From positions 1-22,431 of the IMG/VR virus record IMGVR_UViG_2529292726_000014: a DNA stretch of 22,431 nt. One strand, written 5' to 3'. This DNA is from a virus. Taxonomy: Duplodnaviria > Heunggongvirae > Uroviricota > Caudoviricetes. Positions 1 to 19,275 of this stretch are shown here, piece after piece; positions within the stretch are counted from its first letter, which is position 1, and each line of letters opens with the position of its first letter. The notes below the pieces were generated by a model. That model searched no databases and was not told the origin of the DNA. It saw only the letters and a list, made by a program, of their open reading frames with translations. The translations under genes were made by a program, and so were the position numbers.

Positions 1-453
1 ATCGAGGATGAAATACGGGGATTACCGGAGTCAGAGCGTCTTGCCGTCAGGCAGCAGCGAAGCAAAGTGTTACTGACGTCGCTGCATGAATGGATGGTGG
101 AGAAGAATGGTACGCTGTCGAAAAAATCCAGACTGGGCGAAGCGTTCAGCTATGTACTGAATCAGTGGGATGCCCTCTGTTATTACAGTGATGACGGTCT
201 GGCGGAGGCGGATAATAATGCTGCGGAAAGAGCGCTTCGTGCAGTCTGTCTCGGAAAGAAAAACTTTATGTTCTTTGGCAGCGATCACGGCGGCGAGCGT
301 GGAGCACTGTTGTACGGGCTGATCGGCACCTGCCGTCTGAACGGTATCGATCCGGAAGCGTATCTGCGCCATATCCTGAGCGTACTGCCGGAATGGCCTT
401 CCAACCGAGTTGATGAACTCCTGCCATGGAACGTAGTACTCACCAATAAATAA
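1..453 (+). CDS. IS66-family transposase, C-terminal fragment (5' end lies outside the window)
   Basis: Frame 1 is open from position 1 to TAA at 451-453. The translation ...RALRAVCLGKKNFMFFGSDHGGERGALLYGLIGTCRLNGIDPEAYLRHILSVLPEWPSNRVDELLPWNV matches the conserved C-terminal region of IS66-family transposases as I recall it. The GTG at 67 used by the ORF track is internal. Confidence 0.8.
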   Translation: MEDEIRGLPESERLAVRQQRSKVLLTSLHEWMVEKNGTLSKKSRLGEAFSYVLNQWDALCYYSDDGLAEADNNAAERALRAVCLGKKNFMFFGSDHGGERGALLYGLIGTCRLNGIDPEAYLRHILSVLPEWPSNRVDELLPWNVVLTNK

Positions 454-483
454 GCGTCAATACGGTGCTCCGTTGACGCTTAC
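1..483 (+). mobile_element. Right end of an IS66-family insertion sequence (partial, truncated by window edge)
   Basis: The transposase stop is followed by a hairpin (GCGTCAA 454-460 / TTGACGC 473-479) and the sequence ends CGCTTAC at 477-483. Its reverse complement GTAAGCG... is what I recall as the typical IS66-family terminal inverted-repeat start. Exact boundary is uncertain by a few bp. Confidence 0.6.
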
Positions 484-680
484 CACAATGGAGGGGAGTA
501 CCATGAAACTGTTCTCTACACGAGACAGAGTGGTGGTGATGTGTTGATTATCGGCGTATATGCGCACAGGACGCGCTATGACAATGTTTTATGCGGGTAC
601 ACCAATCACATGTATCTGGTGTGATAAATCGCGTTACATGACCTCTCATGTTGTGCTGGTGGTTATCACGACGTTCTGAA

Positions 681-737
681 TCTGGCTTTTGTCTGATATT
701 TTGCGACAAGTACGCGCGCGTAACATCGAAATTATCG
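681..737. repeat. Left copy of an imperfect ~57-bp direct repeat (core GACAAGTACGCGC at 705-717)
   Basis: TCTGGCTTTTGTCTGATATTTTGCGACAAGTACGCGCGCGTAACATCGAAATTATCGG aligns with 3394-3452, sharing a 13-nt identical core plus flanking matches. Confidence 0.6.
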
Positions 738-1057
738 GATGGCGTATGTTGCTGGCAAGATAAAGTCGGCGTAATACAAAGGCGTTACTTGATAGCAGCA
801 AGATTACAACAATGGTTGTTGAATTTGAGCGATGTAAGGAATTGATTTAGGGAGGCGCTGATGGCTAAAAAGTTCCACTACCAGCGGATGAATGCGCCAG
901 CGATGGCCGTTTGGTAGTAAAAGAGGAGCCATTCCTCAATCAGTTGAATACATTATGCCAACTAAATGGGTGGGGGCACTGTGTGGGTATTCAGCGGTGA
1001 CGGTATTTTTTAAGCCAAGGACTATCCGTAGCAGGGGGACTCATTTTGAAATATTTA

Positions 1058-1495
1058 TCATATGTAACTTATTATTTTAGATAAAGATTTCCAGTTAAAG
1101 AAAAAAGTTATCATTGATATAATCAAATATGCCCCTGCGAGTAGCAGGGCATAATAATCCAGAGGCAGATTGCTGACAACAGGGGCAAACATCGAGATCA
1201 TTGCTAATAGGCAGGCTGTGATCAGCGTAGTTCCTGTATCAAAAAGCCCCTCAATAATGCCTTTTAGTACTCCGTTACTTTTTAGAGCGCCTACAATTCC
1301 CTTTGAACTATCAAAGCTACTTAGCATGGTGACTGATGCCAAAACAAAACCAAAGAGAACTCCAGAAATAGTTGAAAGAGCACCAGCAGCCGAAATGACA
1401 GCATTGTGATCTAGGTCGTGTAAAAAATGGGCACCAGCAATAGCCATAGCTAGAGCAAACAATGACTTGGCAGCAAACAATTTCCGAGAACTCAT
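1058..1495 (-). CDS. Small polytopic membrane protein (145 aa, about 3-4 predicted TM helices); candidate effector of a two-gene module
   Basis: ATG at 1495 with an AGGAA Shine-Dalgarno about 9 nt upstream, 12 bp after the stop of the upstream gene. Hydrophobic segments at roughly residues 10-24, 32-60, 88-105 and 113-134. AT-rich relative to the lambda-like genes. Confidence 0.6.
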   Translation of the reverse strand: MSSRKLFAAKSLFALAMAIAGAHFLHDLDHNAVISAAGALSTISGVLFGFVLASVTMLSSFDSSKGIVGALKSNGVLKGIIEGLFDTGTTLITACLLAMISMFAPVVSNLPLDYYALLLAGAYLIISMITFFFNWKSLSKIISYI

Positions 1496-1507
1496 AATGT
1501 ATTCCTG

Positions 1508-2593
1508 TTACGTTTGACTAACCAAATAGTACTGGGTTAGATACCTAAGGTTGTCATTCTTTGCTTGTAGCATAGCATTTTTAACGTCAGTATCGGTCGG
1601 ATACCCATCTGCTTGGATAGGCACCATCTTCTTTACCGTAAGAACTTCGTCTACAAGACTTTTCTTCTTTTTATCGCCCTGAGCAACAACATTTGCTTTC
1701 TCAAAAGTTAAACGACCATCACCACCAGGGAACTTTTCTAGCATCTCCTTAAGGCTTTTTTTAACGTCATCCTCAAGCCATCCCTTTGCTTTTCTTTTTA
1801 ATGGAGAATGTCCGCGTAACGAAATAGTCAGGTGGCTTGAACTGGTGCCTCTGATCATCTCAATCATCTGATTCGCGAACATTCCATCGAGTTGATACTG
1901 TGCGGCATTGAAGTTTCTTGGGATGGCCACAGAAATCTCGCAGCTTCTTAGATTGGATCCAGTTTCGAGTAGTTCTTTGATGCTTTCTTCTTTCCAAATG
2001 GCTTCAAAAGAAACAGGGACTCCGCGATCACTGGAGTTGAAAAGAAGGAAGGCTAAGTCACTATGGCGTGGACCTAAATGATTTAAAGACAATACTAGAA
2101 TGTCTGTCTGAGGATAATAAATAAAGTATGTACGTTCTGAAAGAGTCTTTGCCCCGGCTAGAGGGATTTTCTCTTCCACCCACTCTTTATCTGTAATATA
2201 TGCCAGTGTTGCGCTTTTTCTTCTTCGAGACATGAATCCGAAGTAGGAGCCATCCTCGGGTGAGATGTCTAGAAAATGAATTTTAAGTTCTCTTTCACCA
2301 AAGTCTGCATAGTGGGTCATCTTGAAGTCTTTAGAACACCGATCATACAGATTTTTAAAGGCCTCTGCGGTTAACCCCTTGTTACTAGTGCGAATATTCT
2401 CAGAGCTTGTGTAAAAGCCCACCCTTACAGATTTCAAACTTTGATCTTTTGGTGCCACAGTCATTTGAGCTCCATTGTACTCTGCGAAAGTTTTTGCACA
2501 CCTTGAAATCAAAATCTCCATGTCAGTCACGAGAAAATAACTATGGATGAAACCCATCAAAGGCATTGAATACAGGTGGCTTTTGAGAATCAT
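1508..2593 (-). CDS. Hypothetical 361-aa soluble protein, first gene of a two-gene operon; no family recognised by eye
   Basis: Long uninterrupted minus-strand ORF in an AT-rich segment, ending 12 bp before the membrane-protein gene. No canonical nuclease, ATPase, cyclase or HEPN motif recognised by inspection. Start could be an internal Met (M10, M13 or M25) rather than 2593. Confidence 0.6.
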   Translation of the reverse strand: MILKSHLYSMPLMGFIHSYFLVTDMEILISRCAKTFAEYNGAQMTVAPKDQSLKSVRVGFYTSSENIRTSNKGLTAEAFKNLYDRCSKDFKMTHYADFGERELKIHFLDISPEDGSYFGFMSRRRKSATLAYITDKEWVEEKIPLAGAKTLSERTYFIYYPQTDILVLSLNHLGPRHSDLAFLLFNSSDRGVPVSFEAIWKEESIKELLETGSNLRSCEISVAIPRNFNAAQYQLDGMFANQMIEMIRGTSSSHLTISLRGHSPLKRKAKGWLEDDVKKSLKEMLEKFPGGDGRLTFEKANVVAQGDKKKKSLVDEVLTVKKMVPIQADGYPTDTDVKNAMLQAKNDNLRYLTQYYLVSQT

Positions 2594-2944
2594 CCTAACC
2601 TGGTGACGGTGGTTCGCATATCCTGATGGATGATCAGTGATTAATCAATGCGCCAAGCAGATGTGTCTATGTGTTTGTTAATCATTGCATGACAGTAGAT
2701 CGACATGGGAGATCACGTTATATAGTTGAATTGTTAGGATATCCATGCACCGATCAACTGACTAGGCTGATGTGCTTTTTAGCAGGTGCCATATAGTAGT
2801 TAGGCGGTTCTGTGAAATGATTACTGTTCCAGCATAACTGCGGCATAAAGCGGTGCTATATAAGCTATTTGCTGGCGGATTTAGTCTTCACCGTTAATAT
2901 ATGTAGTGACTATTTGACAGAGTGTTAGTTCACGGACACTTTTT

Positions 2945-3053
2945 GTTGGTTCAAAATGAGTTGATGTTGGTTCAATATTTTAGAAAAAACACAATAAAAA
3001 CAACGCTCTTTACAAATTGAACCAACTGAACCAACTGAACCAACTGAACCAAC
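2945..3053. repeat. Iteron-like array: two inverted copies GTTGGTTCAA (2945-2954, 2966-2975) and about 3.9 tandem copies of GAACCAACT (3019-3053)
   Basis: Read directly from the sequence. Lies in the ~500-bp divergent intergenic region between the minus-strand operon (start 2593) and the PerC-like gene (start 3090). Confidence 0.75.
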
Positions 3054-3089
3054 ACCTTTTTGCTTATCTATATAATCTGAGAGGCAGAA

Positions 3090-3371
3090 ATGATAAGGGA
3101 CAGGAAAGCTGAAGAGCTGGAGTCAAAAGGGCTATACCGGAGAGCTGCCGCACGATGGATGGAAGTCATGCTGTTATGCACCGAGGACGATGATCGGGAA
3201 TGGATAAAGCGCCGCCGTGAAACGTGTCTGGAGAACGTGAAGCGCCCGCCCGTGAAGGTTGAGGAATTTGGCGACCTGCATAAAGCTGTTACCGAAACGC
3301 AACACCGCATGGGGATAGCGCAACCGAACGGTAACGCCTTCCGGTTAAATGGCGGCAAGAGGCAAAGGTAG
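3090..3371 (+). CDS. PerC-family transcriptional regulator (Pch-like)
   Basis: 93-aa product MIRDRKAEELESKGLYRRAAARWMEVM...KAVTETQHRMGIAQPNGNAF matches the conserved PerC/Pch pattern (KAEELE.KGL.RRAAARW, MGI.QPNG) as I recall it. GAGAGG precedes the ATG. Confidence 0.75.
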   Translation: MIRDRKAEELESKGLYRRAAARWMEVMLLCTEDDDREWIKRRRETCLENVKRPPVKVEEFGDLHKAVTETQHRMGIAQPNGNAFRLNGGKRQR

Positions 3372-3375
3372 ACCA

Positions 3376-3397
3376 CCAGAGGGAAATCATCCTCTGG
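3376..3397 (+). terminator. Possible hairpin terminator downstream of the PerC-like gene
   Basis: CCAGAGG (3376-3382) / CCTCTGG (3391-3397) 7-bp stem with 8-nt loop, followed by a T-rich but interrupted tract. Confidence 0.3.
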
Positions 3398-3452
3398 CTG
3401 GCGGTTTCTGGTATTTCGGGACAAGTACGCGCACGCGTAGCACCCAATCGGT
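3394..3452. repeat. Right copy of the imperfect ~57-bp direct repeat (core GACAAGTACGCGC at 3419-3431)
   Basis: TCTGGCTGGCGGTTTCTGGTATTTCGGGACAAGTACGCGCACGCGTAGCACCCAATCGG aligns with 681-737. Confidence 0.6.
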
Positions 3453-3668
3453 GAGGAAATAGCGGCGACCTGAATGGTCAAAATCACAACGCAGCTATCC
3501 CCGTAAGCATCGCTTAACGGAATAGCAGTAACCTGAATCCAGTGGGGAGGGGGTAGTCAAATCTCTACAGGCCTGACTATCCGGGACTGCCCGCCCCATC
3601 GTTTTTTTATACCCGCGAAAAATGAAATTTAATCCGGGCGTGTTTCATCCTTCCAGAGGGTATGACGT

Positions 3669-3854
3669 ATGACACCACGCGAAATAGCCTTATTGACCAT
3701 CGCCAAACTTGAGCACGGAGGCCACCAGCTTACACAGGCAGATCAACGGGAGATAGAACGATCAGTTAATGCCGATATAGCCCGGCGCGACAGGTTCCGC
3801 GAAATGATGCGAGCACCTGCCTACCAGTGGAAGAAGCCAGCGCCGCGCAGGTAG
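3669..3854 (+). CDS. Small prophage protein (61 aa), possibly YdfA/DUF1391-like
   Basis: ORF with GAGGG upstream. Family assignment is from memory only and is weak. Confidence 0.45.
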   Translation: MTPREIALLTIAKLEHGGHQLTQADQREIERSVNADIARRDRFREMMRAPAYQWKKPAPRR

Positions 3855-3974
3855 ATATGGGATTATTCCACATGTAACTTATGCGTATTAAGCAAATTTC
3901 CTTTATTCACCTTTACAGAATTGTGAGTACGTCAGTATCGTTATCCTTCCGATTCGCATTTATTCAGGATTTGC

Positions 3975-4517
3975 ATGTACCAGCTAAAGATAACCATCCG
4001 AGACAGCAAACCACCTATATGGCGGCGTGTGCTGGTTCCAGAGCAAATCCCCTTTAGTAAACTTCATGCCGTGATCCAGTTAGCTTTTGGCTGGAATGAC
4101 GAACACCTGTATATGTTCGAGAAAGGGCGTAAAGGTGATCCAGGTAGCGAGTATCGCGTATGGGGTGAGGATGAAAGCATGGGTAACGCGGCAATCACGC
4201 CACTATGGGCGGCGCTCCAGAATGAGGGTGACAAGCTGGTTTACACGTATGACTTTGGCGACTGGTGGGATTGCGTCATTGTGCTGGAGAAGCAAACACA
4301 CGATACGAGTAATCAGCCCATTAGCTGCCTGCGTGGGAAAGGCACCACCCCGGCGGAAAACTCAGGCGGCTTGCATGGTTACAATGAATTGCTATTACAG
4401 GCCAGAGAGTCTGATAATCCTGAGCAGGCCGAGATCCACAATTTCCTGATGCTGGATATTGAACGCCGGGTTTACGACCTGAGCCGCATCAACGACAGAT
4501 TGCAGGCTATTAACTGA
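3975..4517 (+). CDS. pRiA4b ORF-3-like family protein (180 aa)
   Basis: N-terminal pattern YQLKITIRDSKPPIWRRVLVP...LHAVIQLAFGWNDEHLYMF and later DFGDWW are characteristic of the plasmid pRiA4b ORF-3-like family as I recall it. Confidence 0.6.
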   Translation: MYQLKITIRDSKPPIWRRVLVPEQIPFSKLHAVIQLAFGWNDEHLYMFEKGRKGDPGSEYRVWGEDESMGNAAITPLWAALQNEGDKLVYTYDFGDWWDCVIVLEKQTHDTSNQPISCLRGKGTTPAENSGGLHGYNELLLQARESDNPEQAEIHNFLMLDIERRVYDLSRINDRLQAIN

Positions 4518-4869
4518 CCCGCATGTATTCACCTGATATTGCGTTATCAGCGCCGCCAGTATCGCGCATAACAGCACAATGACCGGGTAAACCGTAACGC
4601 ACGACCGTTGCGTTAGTCTCACCGCCGCGCCTTATCTGGCGCGATTCATACACTGTCACCCGCTCAAGCAGTCCACCAGCTACCATGCTTTCCAGTGTGC
4701 GCCGGGTTGATTCGAGCTGGTGACGCTTATCGAACGACACCATGCCATGAAGCAGGTAGGCCACACCCGACACATCGAACGGCGGCGCACCAATCTCACC
4801 AGTCACCCATTCGAGGTTATCCGGTTCAAAGTAGCTAAGTATCTCTTTTTTGCGGCTGGTCATTCTCAT
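4510..4869 (-). CDS. Hypothetical protein (119 aa), possible winged-helix DNA-binding protein
   Basis: ORF convergent with and overlapping by 8 bp the preceding gene. C-terminal segment TRRTLESMVAGGLLERVTVYESRQIRRGG resembles a winged HTH. Start may be M3. Confidence 0.4.
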   Translation of the reverse strand: MRMTSRKKEILSYFEPDNLEWVTGEIGAPPFDVSGVAYLLHGMVSFDKRHQLESTRRTLESMVAGGLLERVTVYESRQIRRGGETNATVVRYGLPGHCAVMRDTGGADNAISGEYMRVS

Positions 4870-5018
4870 GGCTGGCTGATTCCTTATTGTGGGATAGCAC
4901 TATCATACAATAAGTGGGTTAAAGGGAGAGCGTTACCGCCTGATATGCTGTATGAATAACAACCAAATTTCAGGGGCGGAAAAAGATATGGGGGTACTTT
5001 TGGGGGTGTCTATAAAAA

Positions 5019-5718
5019 ATGAACAATAAAAAAGGCAACAAAAACAAAGCTTATCGCCTATGTGTATTGTTCCTATTATCACCGTATCGCCCGAAAGATG
5101 ATGGCTATGTGGCACAGGGGCGCGAGCTAAAACAGCCCGTCATGGCCCCGCTGATTTCTTACTTTCGTGATGCGCGTAAATCACTGGGAATAACGTCAAA
5201 ACAGATAGCGGAAGCCACCGGAAAGAAAAACATGGCTTCGCACTGGTTTGGTACCAGTCAGTGGCAGTTACCGAACGAGGGTGATTACAACAAATTGCAG
5301 GCGTTGTTTGCGCGTGTTGCGGCAGAAAAAACATCAGCGCGGGGAACTGGAAAAACCACACCACCAGCTGGTCAGCACATACAGTGAGCTGAACCGGCAG
5401 TATACGGAATTGCTGAGTGAATATAAAAATTTGCGGCGGTATTTCGGTGTGACGGCGCAGGTTCCGTACACCGATGTCTGGACGCATAAACCGGTGCAGT
5501 ACTATCCAGGGAAACATCCGTGCGAAAAACCGGCAGAAATGCTGCAGCAGATAATCAACGCGAGCAGTCGTCCGGGAGACCTGGTTGCAGATTTTTTTAT
5601 GGGTTCAGGTTCAACGGTAAAAGCGGCGATGGCACTGGGGCGTTGTGCGATTGGTGTTGAGCTGGAGACAGGACGTTTTGAACAGACAGCCAGGGAAGTT
5701 CAGGATTTAATCGTTTGA
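5019..5718 (+). pseudogene. DNA N6-adenine methyltransferase, split by a frameshift (possibly also lacking a canonical DPPY motif)
   Basis: C-terminal half (frame of 5248..5718) has HPCEKPAEMLQQIINASSRPGDLVADFFMGSGSTVKAAMALGRCAIGVELE, i.e. the HP.QKP and F.GSG.T AdoMet-binding motifs of beta-class phage methyltransferases. The N-terminal portion is in a different frame (5019..5387). The frames switch near the A6 run at 5324-5329 or the A5 run at 5351-5355. Confidence 0.55.
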
Positions 5719-5767
5719 AACGGATGAGATTGCAGAATTAATTACGCACCATTATTATTCTGCTCCC

Positions 5768-5843
5768 GGCCCTTTAGCTCAGTGGTGAGAGCGAGCGACT
5801 CATAATCGCCAGGTCGCTGGTTCAAATCCAGCAAGGGCCACCA
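5768..5843 (+). tRNA. tRNA with CAU anticodon, ileX/ileZ-like (tRNA-Ile2, lysidine) rather than Met
   Basis: Manual cloverleaf: acceptor GGCCCTT/AAGGGCC, anticodon loop CTCATAA, T-loop TTCAAAT, 3' CCA encoded. Very similar to E. coli ileX as I recall it. Confidence 0.8.
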
Positions 5844-5844
5844 A

Positions 5845-5921
5845 CCGTCACCAGTTCATCAGGAAAGAGCGTCAACCCTTTAAGTTGAGTGTGCGAGGTT
5901 CGAGTCCCCGGTGGCGGTCCA
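5845..5921 (+). tRNA. Atypical or degenerate tRNA-like gene (anticodon loop CCTTTAA; UUU if canonical, Lys-like)
   Basis: A cloverleaf can be drawn (acceptor CCGTCAC/GTGGCGG with one G-U pair, T-loop TTCGAGT, CCA encoded) but with C8, C33 and one T-stem mismatch. May be a pseudo-tRNA. Confidence 0.4.
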
Positions 5922-5923
5922 GT

Positions 5924-5999
<76 letters not shown>

Positions 6000-6002
6000 T
6001 AT

Positions 6003-6077
<75 letters not shown>

Positions 6078-6144
6078 GCATTTGCAACAAGCCTTATTGT
6101 ATTGCGGCACTGGTGTATTTTTTATTACGTGGGAGCAGGTTGTT

Positions 6145-6175
6145 TTGAAAAAGCATTCTGTTCTCTGGCTATAAT
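6145..6175 (+). promoter_or_regulatory. Candidate sigma70 late promoter (pR'-like): -35 TTGAAA (6145-6150), -10 TATAAT (6170-6175)
   Basis: Perfect -10 hexamer and near-consensus -35 with a long (18-19 bp) spacer. Lies about 180-200 nt upstream of a strong terminator, as lambda pR' does relative to tR'. Confidence 0.4.
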
Positions 6176-6352
6176 TTGAGGCCAGGTGTAGCCTCAGTGC
6201 TGATTTTTTTACGACAGCAGAATGGTGCATTATCGGTGGAGATTTTGTATTTCCTGGCAGGGTCGGTGATGCATCATTCCGATGTTGTAAGCATCGCTCA
6301 GAATAACGTTGAGATTAATCGCGTACTAAGCAAAACCTGGAAATACATCCTT

Positions 6353-6379
6353 AACCGCCGCACCAGGCGGTTTTTTTTA
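6353..6379 (+). terminator. Rho-independent terminator (tR'-like)
   Basis: AACCGCC / GGCGGTT stem with GCACCA loop followed by T8. Confidence 0.6.
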
Positions 6380-6393
6380 TTCATTTTTTTCAT

Positions 6394-6416
6394 GGCTCGC
6401 TACGGCGGGCCTTTTT
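6394..6416 (+). terminator. Second hairpin terminator
   Basis: GGCTCGC / GCGGGCC stem (one G-U pair) with a short loop followed by T5. Confidence 0.4.
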
Positions 6417-6502
6417 CATATCCTCGCCACACCCGGCGCATATCACATCAAATAACGCCGCGCAAAAGGCATCTGCGGGTGCCTTTGACGGGGTGTTTTT
6501 AC

Positions 6503-6524
6503 GGGCCGCTGGTGGCCCTTTTTT
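6503..6524 (+). terminator. Hairpin terminator immediately upstream of the lysis genes
   Basis: GGGCC / GGCCC stem with GCTGGT loop followed by T6. Preceded by another stem AAAGGCA/TGCCTTT at about 6466-6487. Confidence 0.5.
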
Positions 6525-6543
6525 ATTTACAGGAGAAAAACGT

Positions 6544-6933
6544 ATGTCTGAACCCTTATCCGGTTCCGGCACGGCTGCGGCGCTCGGTGGGGCGACGGTG
6601 TACGGGCTGTTTACCGGAACGGATTTCGGGATTGTGTTTGGTGCGTTCGCCGGGGCGTTATTTGTGGCAACGATGCCGCAGGCGCTTTCAGTCTGGCGTG
6701 TGGTGGCGCATTTTTTGGTGTCGTTTATCGTCGGCGTGCTGGGGGCGCGCGTGCTGTCAGCCTGGATTGCATCAAAAACAGGGTATGACGGTACATCGGC
6801 AGATGCGCTGTGTGCGGTGCTGGTATCGGTGGTGTCGGTGAAGATTCTGTCGTTCATCCACCAGCAGGATATTGCATCGCTGGTGTCCGGTGTGTTCTCC
6901 CGTCTGCGGGGTGGAGGCGGTAATGTTAAGTAA
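6544..6933 (+). CDS. Putative holin (129-aa membrane protein)
   Basis: ATG at 6544 preceded by AGGAG. Glycine-rich product with 2-3 hydrophobic helices, first gene of the lysis cluster. The upstream in-frame ATG at 6493 overlaps the terminator and is rejected. Confidence 0.5.
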   Translation: MSEPLSGSGTAAALGGATVYGLFTGTDFGIVFGAFAGALFVATMPQALSVWRVVAHFLVSFIVGVLGARVLSAWIASKTGYDGTSADALCAVLVSVVSVKILSFIHQQDIASLVSGVFSRLRGGGGNVK

Positions 6934-7198
6934 CCTTCCCGGATTACTGAATGTGGTGTTAAGCACGGTTATCGTGCTGACGCTCTTTTTTTATCGTCGT
7001 GGTGATTCCAGACATAAACCGCTGATGTCGTGGCTGGCCTGGCTGCTGATGCTGCTGTATGCCTTTGCGCCACTTTGTTATCTGTGTGGTCGCTTTCCAC
7101 CCGGTAACTGGCTGGTCGTCCTGATTAACCTGGTGTTCTGCGTGCTGGTGATACGAGCACGCGGGAACGTATCAAAAATCCTTTCATTACGGAGGTGA
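6923..7198 (+). CDS. Second small membrane protein of the lysis cassette (92 aa; holin or antiholin partner)
   Basis: ATG at 6923 preceded by GGAGG, overlapping the previous gene's stop. Two to three TM segments. Confidence 0.5.
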   Translation: MLSNLPGLLNVVLSTVIVLTLFFYRRGDSRHKPLMSWLAWLLMLLYAFAPLCYLCGRFPPGNWLVVLINLVFCVLVIRARGNVSKILSLRR

Positions 7199-7200
7199 GT

Positions 7201-7578
7201 ATGCCCGGTAAATTCAGATTCAGTCGTCGAAGTGAGAAAAATCTGGAGGGCGTCAAACCACAGCTGGTTGCTGTTGTTCGCCGTGCGCTGGAGCTGACGG
7301 AGGTTGACTTCGGTATTACGGAAGGCCTGCGCAGTAAGTATCGCCAGAAGCAGCTGGTCGCGGAAGGGAAAAGCCAGACCATGAACAGCCGCCACCTGAC
7401 CGGTGATGCGGTGGATGTTGTGGCCTACATTGGTAGCCAGGTGTCATGGGACTGGCCTCTGTACGAGAAAATCGCGCAGGCATTTAAGCAGGCTGCCGCA
7501 GAGCTGGGAACTGCCATCGAATGGGGCGGGGACTGGAAAACACTGAAAGACGGGCCTCACTTTCAGTTGAAGCGCTAA
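7201..7578 (+). CDS. Endolysin, peptidase M15 family (L-alanyl-D-glutamate peptidase type)
   Basis: GGAGG then ATG at 7201. Motifs SRHLTGDAVD, DW, and GPHF near the C-terminus resemble zinc-dependent M15 endolysins such as the phage T5 lysin (from memory). Confidence 0.7.
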   Translation: MPGKFRFSRRSEKNLEGVKPQLVAVVRRALELTEVDFGITEGLRSKYRQKQLVAEGKSQTMNSRHLTGDAVDVVAYIGSQVSWDWPLYEKIAQAFKQAAAELGTAIEWGGDWKTLKDGPHFQLKR

Positions 7579-7592
7579 TAACCAGGTGGTTT

Positions 7593-7775
7593 ATGAGCCG
7601 AAAACACTGGACACACAGAATGCCGCGAACGGCGGCGAAATGGGCACTGGTAGCGATACTGGTGCCTTTTTTCCTGGTGGGATGCGTTAGCCTGGATAAG
7701 GTGCGCCAGCTTTTCGATACGGCCTCGCAGGTCTGCGAAATTGTCGAAAGTGCCAGGCAGTGTATGCAGAACTGA
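7593..7775 (+). CDS. Small lipoprotein (60 aa), possible Rz1-like o-spanin with no recognisable i-spanin partner
   Basis: AGGTGG then ATG at 7593. Signal peptide plus lipobox LVGC, last gene of the lysis cluster. Confidence 0.5.
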   Translation: MSRKHWTHRMPRTAAKWALVAILVPFFLVGCVSLDKVRQLFDTASQVCEIVESARQCMQN

Positions 7776-7862
7776 TCGCCTGTAAGAGCAGAATATTGTT
7801 GAATCTAAATTTACTTTGAACAGTGGCCCGGATGGAAAGGGCATCTAAATAGGAGCAGAAAA

Positions 7863-8072
7863 ATGTTAACTGTAAAAGTCATGTCTCAAAATGGTGGGGA
7901 AGAGCTCCATTGCGGGCGTAGCATTGGCTATCATCCAGAGCAGCGGAGTATTGCCGTATCGGGAAAGGATGGGAAAGTCATTCTGAAAGATGGAGATATT
8001 GCTTATGTAATGAACCAAAACGCTCAAATAATATCTGTTTATCGGCCCAATAATAGTCAGAAAAACATTTGA
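7863..8072 (+). CDS. Hypothetical small protein (69 aa) in an AT-rich moron
   Basis: AGGAG 8 nt upstream of ATG. AT-rich codon usage distinct from flanking genes. Confidence 0.45.
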   Translation: MLTVKVMSQNGGEELHCGRSIGYHPEQRSIAVSGKDGKVILKDGDIAYVMNQNAQIISVYRPNNSQKNI

Positions 8073-8920: not shown

Positions 8921-9440
8921 ATGAAGGTTAATAAAAAGAAACTTGCCGAAATTTTCAACGTGGATCCGCGAACGATTGAACGCTGGCAGTCTCAGGGACT
9001 CCCTTGCGTCTCCGGAGGGGGTAAGGGCGTTGAATCTGTATTTGATACCTCCATGGCAATTCAGTGGTATGCGCAGAGGGAGGCTGATATCGAAAATGAA
9101 AAACTCCGTAAAGAGGTTGAGGATTACAGGGCTGCCAGTGAGGCAGATCTCCAGCCTGGGACTATTGAGTACGAACGCCATCGACTTACGCGTGCGCAGG
9201 CCGACGCACAGGAGCTGAAGAATGCCAGAGACTCCGCAGAAGTGGTGGAAACCGCATTCTGTACTTTCGTGCTGTCACGGATCGCAGGTGAAATTGCCAG
9301 TATTCTTGACGGGATCCCTCTCTCGGTACAGCGGCGTTTTCCGGAACTGGAAAACCGACATGTTGATTTCCTGAAACGGGATATCATCAAAGCCATGAAC
9401 AAAGCAGCCGCGCTGGATGAACTGATACCGGGGTTGCTGA

Positions 9441-18859: not shown

Positions 18860-19275
18860 GTTTTGCCCTGAAACTGGCGCGCGAGATGGGGCGACCCGAC
18901 TGGCGCGCCATGCTTGCCGGGATGTCATCCACGGAGTATGCCGACTGGCACCGCTTTTACAGTACCCATTATTTTCATGATGTTCTGCTGGATATGCACT
19001 TTTCCGGGCTGACGTACACCGTGCTCAGCCTGTTTTTCAGCGATCCGGATATGCATCCGCTGGATTTCAGTCTGCTGAACCGGCGCGAGGCTGACGAAGA
19101 GCCTGAAGATGATGTGCTGATGCAGAAAGCGGCAGGGCTTGCCGGAGGTGTCCGCTTTGGCCCGGACGGGAATGAAGTTATCCCTACTTCCCCGGATGTG
19201 GCGGACATGACGGAGGATGACGTAATGCTGATGACAGTATCAGAAGGGATCGCAGGAGGAGTCCGGTATGGCTGA
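18437..19275 (+). CDS. T: Tail assembly chaperone gpGT, made by -1 programmed ribosomal frameshift from G into the T frame
   Basis: Slippery heptamer G GGA AAG at 18835-18841 near the end of G. The downstream -1 frame encodes the lambda gpT sequence (FDGELSFALKLAREMG...). Confidence 0.8.
18835..18841 (+). other. -1 programmed ribosomal frameshift slippery site (GGGAAAG) for G-T
   Basis: Identical heptamer and position to the lambda G/T frameshift site as I recall it. Confidence 0.8.

Follow-up and report, generated by a model that had tools for sequence, protein, structure and literature searches.

Small-terminase-like repeated elements flank the accessory slot of a phage satellite of the EcCIMP1 family in Escherichia coli

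In this study, we analyzed a stretch of viral DNA of 22,431 nucleotides (nt) (positions 1 to 22,431 of IMG/VR record IMGVR_UViG_2529292726_000014, hereafter the window), which carries an imperfect direct repeat at 681-737 and 3394-3452. An earlier note on this DNA had taken the two copies for the limits of a low-GC (guanine plus cytosine) cassette of a lambdoid prophage. We found that the copies are two (c2 and c3) of five same-orientation elements that resemble a segment of terS, the small-terminase gene, of the Sf6/Kapi1 type, and that positions 484-5080 are the right arm of a phage-inducible chromosomal island (PICI) of the EcCIMP1 family, a satellite of P22-like phages. The terS-like elements may serve as mimics of the packaging (pac) site of the helper phage, a function to which we give slightly less than an even chance. 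The accessory slot of the island is occupied in the window by a two-gene cargo that is probably an exclusion or abortive-infection pair of the Rex type.

The direct repeat itself is real. Global alignment of the two copies gave 44 identities over 57/59 nt with three small gaps. The best local alignment (682-730 versus 3398-3447, about 50 nt) scored 26.5, which is about nine standard deviations above the scores of shuffled sequences (mean 12.5, standard deviation 1.6) and well above their maximum of 19.5. Under another scoring scheme the pair scored 44, and the other 150-nt tiles of the window, taken on both strands, scored at most 27. The perfect 13-nt core GACAAGTACGCGC is borne out as well, being present exactly at 705-717 and 3420-3432 with no further exact copy in the 22.4-kb window. 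RNA folding of the copies gave z-scores from -1.3 to +1.4 and no notable structure, an Rfam scan of 1-8000 returned three tRNAs and nothing else, and the left flank had no match in the phage collection.

The copies do not form a simple pair. Intact islands contain the motif AGTACGCGC (or AGTACGCAC) five times: four copies (c-1, c0, c1 and c2, spaced by 80, 53 and 233 bp) are clustered in a conserved, non-coding central block of 507 bp, and one (c3) follows the PerC gene. All five lie on one strand, and the motif is otherwise absent from the surrounding 12-28 kb. In the window, c-1 to c1 are located past an insertion sequence (IS). When the genome of the P22-like phage Kapi1, an established helper of this PICI family, was scanned for the core, the single match fell inside the small-terminase gene, and the best local alignment of c0, c2 and c3 in this 39-kb genome is the same terS site. 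The similarity is 71% over 49 nt for c3, including 12 identical nt (E 0.002), and 17/18 for both c0 and c2 (E 0.03). The matched segment covers codons ~49-66 (FRWLAKHEDFRDKYAKA; nt ~146-194), at the 3' end of the part encoding the DNA-binding domain, and the remnants in the elements translate as AKHQ-FRDKYAR, WL..F.DKYAR and FRDKYAHA against WLAKHEDFRDKYAKA in TerS. Kapi1 TerS is essentially gp1 of Sf6. Searches for the motif array found only the same E. coli islands and unrelated tandem repeats in IMG/VR, and only chance matches in high-GC taxa among contigs representing one genome per species.

The host element was identified by comparison with E. coli 510016 (H1), to which the window is identical from 484 onward (100% identity over 484-4000). 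In H1 this stretch, up to 5080, forms the right arm of an ~18-kb island that carries genes for a P4-type integrase (Arm-DNA-bind_3/Phage_integrase), an AlpA regulator (Phage_AlpA), an AntA/B antirepressor, an Icd-like protein, a primase (Zn-ribbon/Toprim/DUF927) and P22-type ejection proteins. The integrase, the AlpA-family regulator and the primase/replicase stand in the canonical order of a PICI, with no capsid or lysis genes, and their domains are all encoded upstream of the window, past the IS. EcCIMP1, the PICI of E. coli MP1, has been experimentally excised and transduced by Kapi1 (PMC11773190; Pick, Stadel & Raivio 2025), and its nucleotide sequence is 98% identical to the window over 2922-5080 and 94% identical over 484-765. 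H1 and EcCIMP1 have the RefSeq accessions of PerC, the 61-amino-acid (aa) open reading frame (ORF), pRiA4b-ORF3 and AlpA in common. The gene order of EcCIMP1 is also alike (int, alpA, antirepressor, Icd-like, DUF927 primase, P22-type ejection genes, accessory slot and PerC), and its central block carries c-1, c0 and c2, with c3 after PerC, as in the island family of the window.

The two islands differ in the accessory slot, which holds alpA_1 and a paralogue of the 61-aa ORF in EcCIMP1 and a RexAB-like pair in the window, and in the integration site, which is tRNA-Thr (thrW) in MP1. According to the RefSeq annotation of H1, the gene interrupted by the island of the window encodes a DNA methyltransferase and belongs to a lambdoid prophage, in which it lies downstream of Q; its N-terminal fragment precedes the island integrase and its C-terminal fragment follows the island (window 5082-5718, with L005 16811-17221 in H1). 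A whole PICI is therefore lodged inside a prophage gene, a satellite integrated within a prophage, and the context given in the earlier note, a cassette of a lambdoid prophage, has to be replaced by this one. Further copies of the family were located at thrW/vat, near paoD and at dinD. The window copy also differs from EcCIMP1 in being interrupted by the IS, an IS66-family element inserted in the central block beside c1 with an 8-bp target duplication, CACAATGG (the opposite junction is seen in L013 at 9230-9250). Helper-dependent excision, replication and high-frequency transfer have been demonstrated for EcCIMP1 only (PMC11773190), and PICI function may be impaired in the window copy because of this insertion. 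IS66-type elements of other islands sit inside the accessory slot (L034/L037, 860-3180).

The boundaries of this slot, slot B, follow from pairwise BLAST comparisons of the window with eight annotated copies of the island and seventeen loci of IMG/VR. On the left, islands differ in where the homology stops, at 729 (class-ii islands), 765 or 899, and on the right conservation resumes at 2922/2944, upstream of PerC and about 450-500 bp before the right repeat copy. Between these points the islands carry AbiD with a 146-151-aa protein, an ImmA/CapP-like peptidase with partners, small ORFs, alpA_1 (EcCIMP1) or the two-gene module of the window. The defence genes among them are AbiD (E 1e-57) in L038/L041 and a CapP/RmrA-like ImmA in L004. 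Unrelated cargo is thus found at a fixed position between flanks conserved at 91-99%, as in a defence or accessory hotspot. The cargo unit 900-2943 is present in 42 of 5,426 complete E. coli genomes, once per genome and with at least 99.6% identity. Across the population, slot B cargo is probably swapped by recombination in the conserved flanks, to the left in the central block and to the right in the region upstream of PerC.

These boundaries bear directly on the claim that recombination at the repeat, whether site-specific or based on short homology, lets the segment between the copies enter and leave as a whole. The right edge of the variable DNA is at 2922/2944 and not at 3447, and the same cargo occurs without the right copy. 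In strains ABU 83972 and W46, 484-3173 is conserved at 99.1-99.4%, the homology ends inside PerC, and no right repeat copy follows. The 5' half of PerC is kept in every island and its 3' half is of two types, with the break at 3173; the iteron-like region at 2944-3089 is common to all related islands. The joining of the cargo to the other PerC 3' half in ABU 83972 and W46, without the right repeat, indicates that the iteron-like region and PerC belong to the island backbone and that the repeat is not the border of the exchanged unit. Islands with the same flanks and unrelated or identical content at other boundaries, which the earlier note had named as evidence against its own cassette, are therefore found in this family, ABU 83972 and W46 among them. 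The low-GC context ascribed to the whole cassette holds for ~800 to ~3050 (0.39-0.42, against ~0.51-0.55 on either side) but not for the final ~400 bp with PerC, where GC is 51%, as in the flanks.

On the side of the cassette, in one class of islands the homology stops only 4-12 nt past the left copy (729), and an element of the same kind, a c0-like copy, lies ~330 nt downstream of the other arm type of PerC (L004, 8894). A single-copy site of the expected form was also found. A synthetic query in which the core linked the left and right flanks was compared with the 5,426 complete genomes, and 1 of the 545 genomes with matches, that of isolate AHB1 (NZ_OZ547150), covered the query to 100% in one piece. 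Its sequence is that of the left copy up to the core and that of the right copy thereafter, with the crossover inside the 13-nt core, and cargo and PerC are both gone. Since this arrangement is rare and the islands otherwise always carry PerC, we read it as a derived deletion between c2 and c3 rather than an ancestral empty site; recombination between the two copies is the probable mechanism. Cargo and PerC can thus be lost together, as a rare event: AHB1 is one genome in 5,426, and the viral and metagenome contigs contained no hybrid site. A synthetic cargo-less junction, with the left block joined to 2944, found no genome with both flanks within ~640 bp.

The number of elements speaks against the cassette too, since there are five and not two, and three of them bound just 53-233 bp of conserved DNA. 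Site-specific recombination at the repeat receives no support: the repeat has no dedicated recombinase, the sole recombinase being the island integrase, and the att-like core of the island (ATGGGGGTACTTATGGGGGT) is unrelated to the direct repeat. We regard the cassette as largely refuted and give it very little credence. For annotation, these results call for caution, as direct repeats flanking low-GC DNA need not bound the mobile unit.

EcCIMP1 has no terminase genes and its packaging mechanism was left open (PMC11773190), and on this basis pac mimicry is proposed here. The island annotation contains no terminase gene except a 105-nt pseudogene scrap, and in P22-like phages pac lies inside terS. 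According to this proposal, the five elements would mimic the helper pac site and allow the helper terminase to initiate headful packaging on the satellite, which itself lacks terS. Recombination between c2 and c3, which bracket slot B and PerC, with loss of both, would be a by-product. In its fuller form, which we hold with somewhat more reserve, the elements would be working pac sites in a redundant, same-orientation array that operates with no terminase or redirecting protein, and the range of helpers would be limited to phages with a TerS of the Sf6 type. If this is true, the packaging signals double as short homologies by which accessory genes of the satellite are deleted or reshuffled. 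The five short terS-derived elements are in any case a concrete and cheaply tested candidate for the packaging mechanism of EcCIMP1.

Several observations weigh against pac mimicry. The motifs are no more conserved than their surroundings, with 5/52 columns varying as compared with 43/456 outside, and c1 is mutated in EcCIMP1 and ABU 83972 and c2 in L014. The identity to terS amounts to 12 nt with degenerate flanks, and the BLAST E values of 0.002-0.03 apply to a search within one phage genome. The pac site of Sf6 was reportedly placed by Leavitt and colleagues, in 2013, in the DNA encoding the DNA-binding domain of TerS, and the segment matched by the elements is a putative part of it. In the terS alleles the motif sits precisely where the polymorphic 5' part joins the conserved 3' part, and the elements may reflect nothing more than a preferred joint for recombination; among 58 alleles the polymorphic part stops exactly at the start of the core. 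Finally, transduction of EcCIMP1 by Kapi1 is reported to be very inefficient (PMC11773190).

Alleles of the Sf6 type (L044 18704-19132, L045-L124) vary strongly over codons 1-59, which encode the DNA-binding domain, but hardly at all from codon 60 onward, a pattern that fits exchange of the part encoding the DNA-binding domain alone. Conservation at synonymous sites of terS was also considered as a proxy for pac and was uninformative, because the motif stands at the start of the generally conserved 3' part.

The main rival, which we consider unlikely, is that the elements are functionless terS debris, the remains of repeated exchange with P22-like phages, illegitimate or homologous, which hitch-hikes in the islands and occasionally provides short homology for deletion. 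Exchange of DNA with such phages is clear, as the ejection-protein gene of the island is 88% identical to that of Kapi1 over 257 nt. The background level of motif conservation, the mutated copies and the position of the motif at the mosaic joint of terS all agree with debris. However, decay should leave differing parts of terS and not five same-strand copies of one segment of ~20-50 nt, and terS does not adjoin the ejection genes in the phage. Moreover, the central block is kept at 91-100% in all related islands examined, regardless of cargo and including those with differing primase and ejection modules.

It is still less probable that the elements are operator-like sites for an island or host regulator (AlpA, PerC or the pRiA4b-ORF3 protein), controlling a leftward promoter of slot A and transcription of the PerC region, with a coincidental likeness to terS. 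Such a role would suit the palindrome of the core, TACGCG(0-2 nt)CGCGTA, the location of four copies in the non-coding block where the minus-strand genes of slot A begin, and a promoter-like minus-strand site that adjoins c2 (758-731). The palindrome is, however, imperfect or absent in c-1, c0 and c1, the similarity to terS reaches past it over 18-49 nt, neither a promoter nor a divergent gene adjoins c3, and the motifs show no excess conservation.

Satellites that mimic the packaging signals of their helpers are known, including P4 (cos), SaPIbov5, EfCIV583 and PLE (pac) (PMC11417361). As in these systems, a satellite without its own terS here bears a short sequence resembling a candidate packaging signal of the helper. 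The scale of the likeness is comparable to that of PLE, in which 14 identical nt lie within 89 nt at 71%, as against 12 within 49 nt at 71% in the present case. The difference is that there are five degenerate copies instead of one, that they correspond to the inside of the helper terS ORF and that their pac function is putative. The paper on EcCIMP1 has no description of repeated elements (PMC11773190). Packaging mimicry, hotspots in satellites and Rex-like systems are all established kinds; what is new is that the repeat elements of the EcCIMP1-type PICI family are assigned to terS, together with the RexA fold described next.

The two-gene cargo of the window is predicted, with moderate confidence, to be a two-component exclusion module of the Rex type. 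The predicted model of the RexA-like protein has the two-domain, RdgC-like fold of RexA, the first structural assignment for DUF6731-related proteins. The 145-aa protein resembles lambda RexB in length (145 versus 144 aa), in gene order, in the gap to the RexA-like gene (12 versus 15 nt) and in the positions of its hydrophobic segments, and its low-confidence model shows four long helices. A homologous pair is present in phage cdtI on the opposite strand, in a moron position between Q and the DNA methylase gene (L007 3580-4968, orf54/orf53), with identities of 42-44% for the RexA-like and 34% for the RexB-like protein.

On the other hand, the model of the RexA-like protein is of moderate confidence (predicted local distance difference test score, pLDDT, 74), and its comparison with lambda RexA in hhalign gave a probability of 0.3%. 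BLASTP of the 145-aa protein against lambda RexB gave an E value of 1.8, and a fold search with its model gave no significant match (best E 0.15-0.5, one of these a protein of phage Sbash). Neither protein matched Pfam, NCBIfam or PADLOC, the RexA/RexB models of Pfam included. The pair also differs from lambda RexA/RexB and the Rex-like pairs of actinophages (PMC11077077) in having no detectable sequence similarity to the lambda proteins, with relatives that are filed under DUF6731. It is not beside a CI repressor but in the accessory slot of a satellite, and the cdtI homologues come after Q. By tblastn, the large protein also matches two further Escherichia phages, there under a feature annotated 'portal (connector) protein', a label that looks like a misannotation if the feature is the RexA-like homologue.

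Rousset and colleagues reportedly described, in 2022, hotspots of defence genes in P2/P4 phages and satellites. Slot B is like these in its fixed position, its conserved flanks and its unrelated low-GC cargo, which includes AbiD and CapP/ImmA-like proteins. It differs in belonging to an EcCIMP1-type PICI and in being flanked by a non-coding block and the promoter region of PerC, not by two conserved genes. The superinfection immunity of EcCIMP1 is not explained by any known defence system (PMC11773190). In this island family the slot rotates AbiD, ImmA/CapP-like proteins and the previously unrecognised pair of RexA-fold and RexB-like proteins. The features of the window are listed in Table 1.

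Table 1. Features of the window from the IS to the interrupted prophage gene (strand empty where none is assigned)
Feature	Position	Strand	Remarks
Right end of IS66-family IS	1..483	+	Related E. coli loci match the window only from 484; terminus ...CGCTTAC at 483
Non-coding central block, right part	484..729	+	Intact block in L001 11740-12246, with c-1, c0, c1 and c2
Left repeat copy c2, terS-like	682..730	+	Right edge of central block; match to Kapi1 terS at 18875-18892 (17/18)
Accessory slot B	730..2943		Unrelated DNA in L002, L003, L004, EcCIMP1 and others; 900-2943 is a 2,044-bp low-GC unit
RexB-like small membrane protein, 145 aa	1058..1495	-	PHROG 8552; four hydrophobic helices; 12 nt past RexA-like gene
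RexA-like protein	1508..2464	-	PHROG 7651, DUF6731-related; 318 aa from RefSeq start; longest ORF to 2593 (361 aa)
Iteron-like and PerC promoter region	2944..3089	+	Two inverted GTTGGTTCA, AT-rich spacer, four TGAACCAAC at 3018-3053
PerC-family gene, island backbone	3090..3371	+	Pfam PF06069, E 4e-30; WP_000617443.1, annotated in H1 and EcCIMP1
Right repeat copy c3, terS-like	3398..3447	+	Linked to type-I 3' arm of PerC; one per genome in 253 genomes
61-aa ORF	3669..3854	+	Island right arm
pRiA4b-ORF3 family gene	3975..4517	+	Island right arm
119-aa ORF	4510..4869	-	Island right arm
Remainder of right arm	3669..5080		Island end near 5080, with att-like repeat
Prophage DNA-methyltransferase gene, C-terminal fragment	5082..5718	+	RefSeq annotation of H1

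Slot B is not the only variable site of the island family, in which at least three additional slots were seen. The slot after PerC contains a 1.3-kb segment rich in iterons that includes a 181-aa ORF (L040 4295-5628); that before pRiA4b-ORF3 contains a Panacea-domain protein and a partner (L187 7239-8131); and a third, which separates the injection gene from the central block, contains small genes on the minus strand, including a Bax1-I-like one (L001 11303-11739). The injection protein, used as an anchor in the contigs representing one genome per species, had no match. In slot B of EcCIMP1, an unannotated stretch (L026 10062-10239) is 69% identical to the region of the 61-aa ORF downstream of c3 (window 3669-3846), which suggests an old duplication of this module.

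In isolate 38M23CPO005 (L187 4795-5117), a lambdoid prophage truncated in rusA is joined to the position of the central block equivalent to window 613. This fusion (H70/L187) was considered as an independent PerC module and rejected, as it is a deletion joining the neighbouring prophage to the island.

Three tRNA genes at 5768-6075 (Ile, Thr and Gly by the RefSeq annotation of H1) separate the methyltransferase remnant from the lysis genes of the prophage. An origin-like design, with inverted GTTGGTTCA, an AT-rich spacer and three to four tandem TGAACCAAC, occurs twice in the island. One of these sites lies just past the primase gene (L001 6977-7095), and its inverted paralogue is ~7.4 kb away, upstream of PerC (2944-3053), a pairing that resembles the ori/crr pair of P4.

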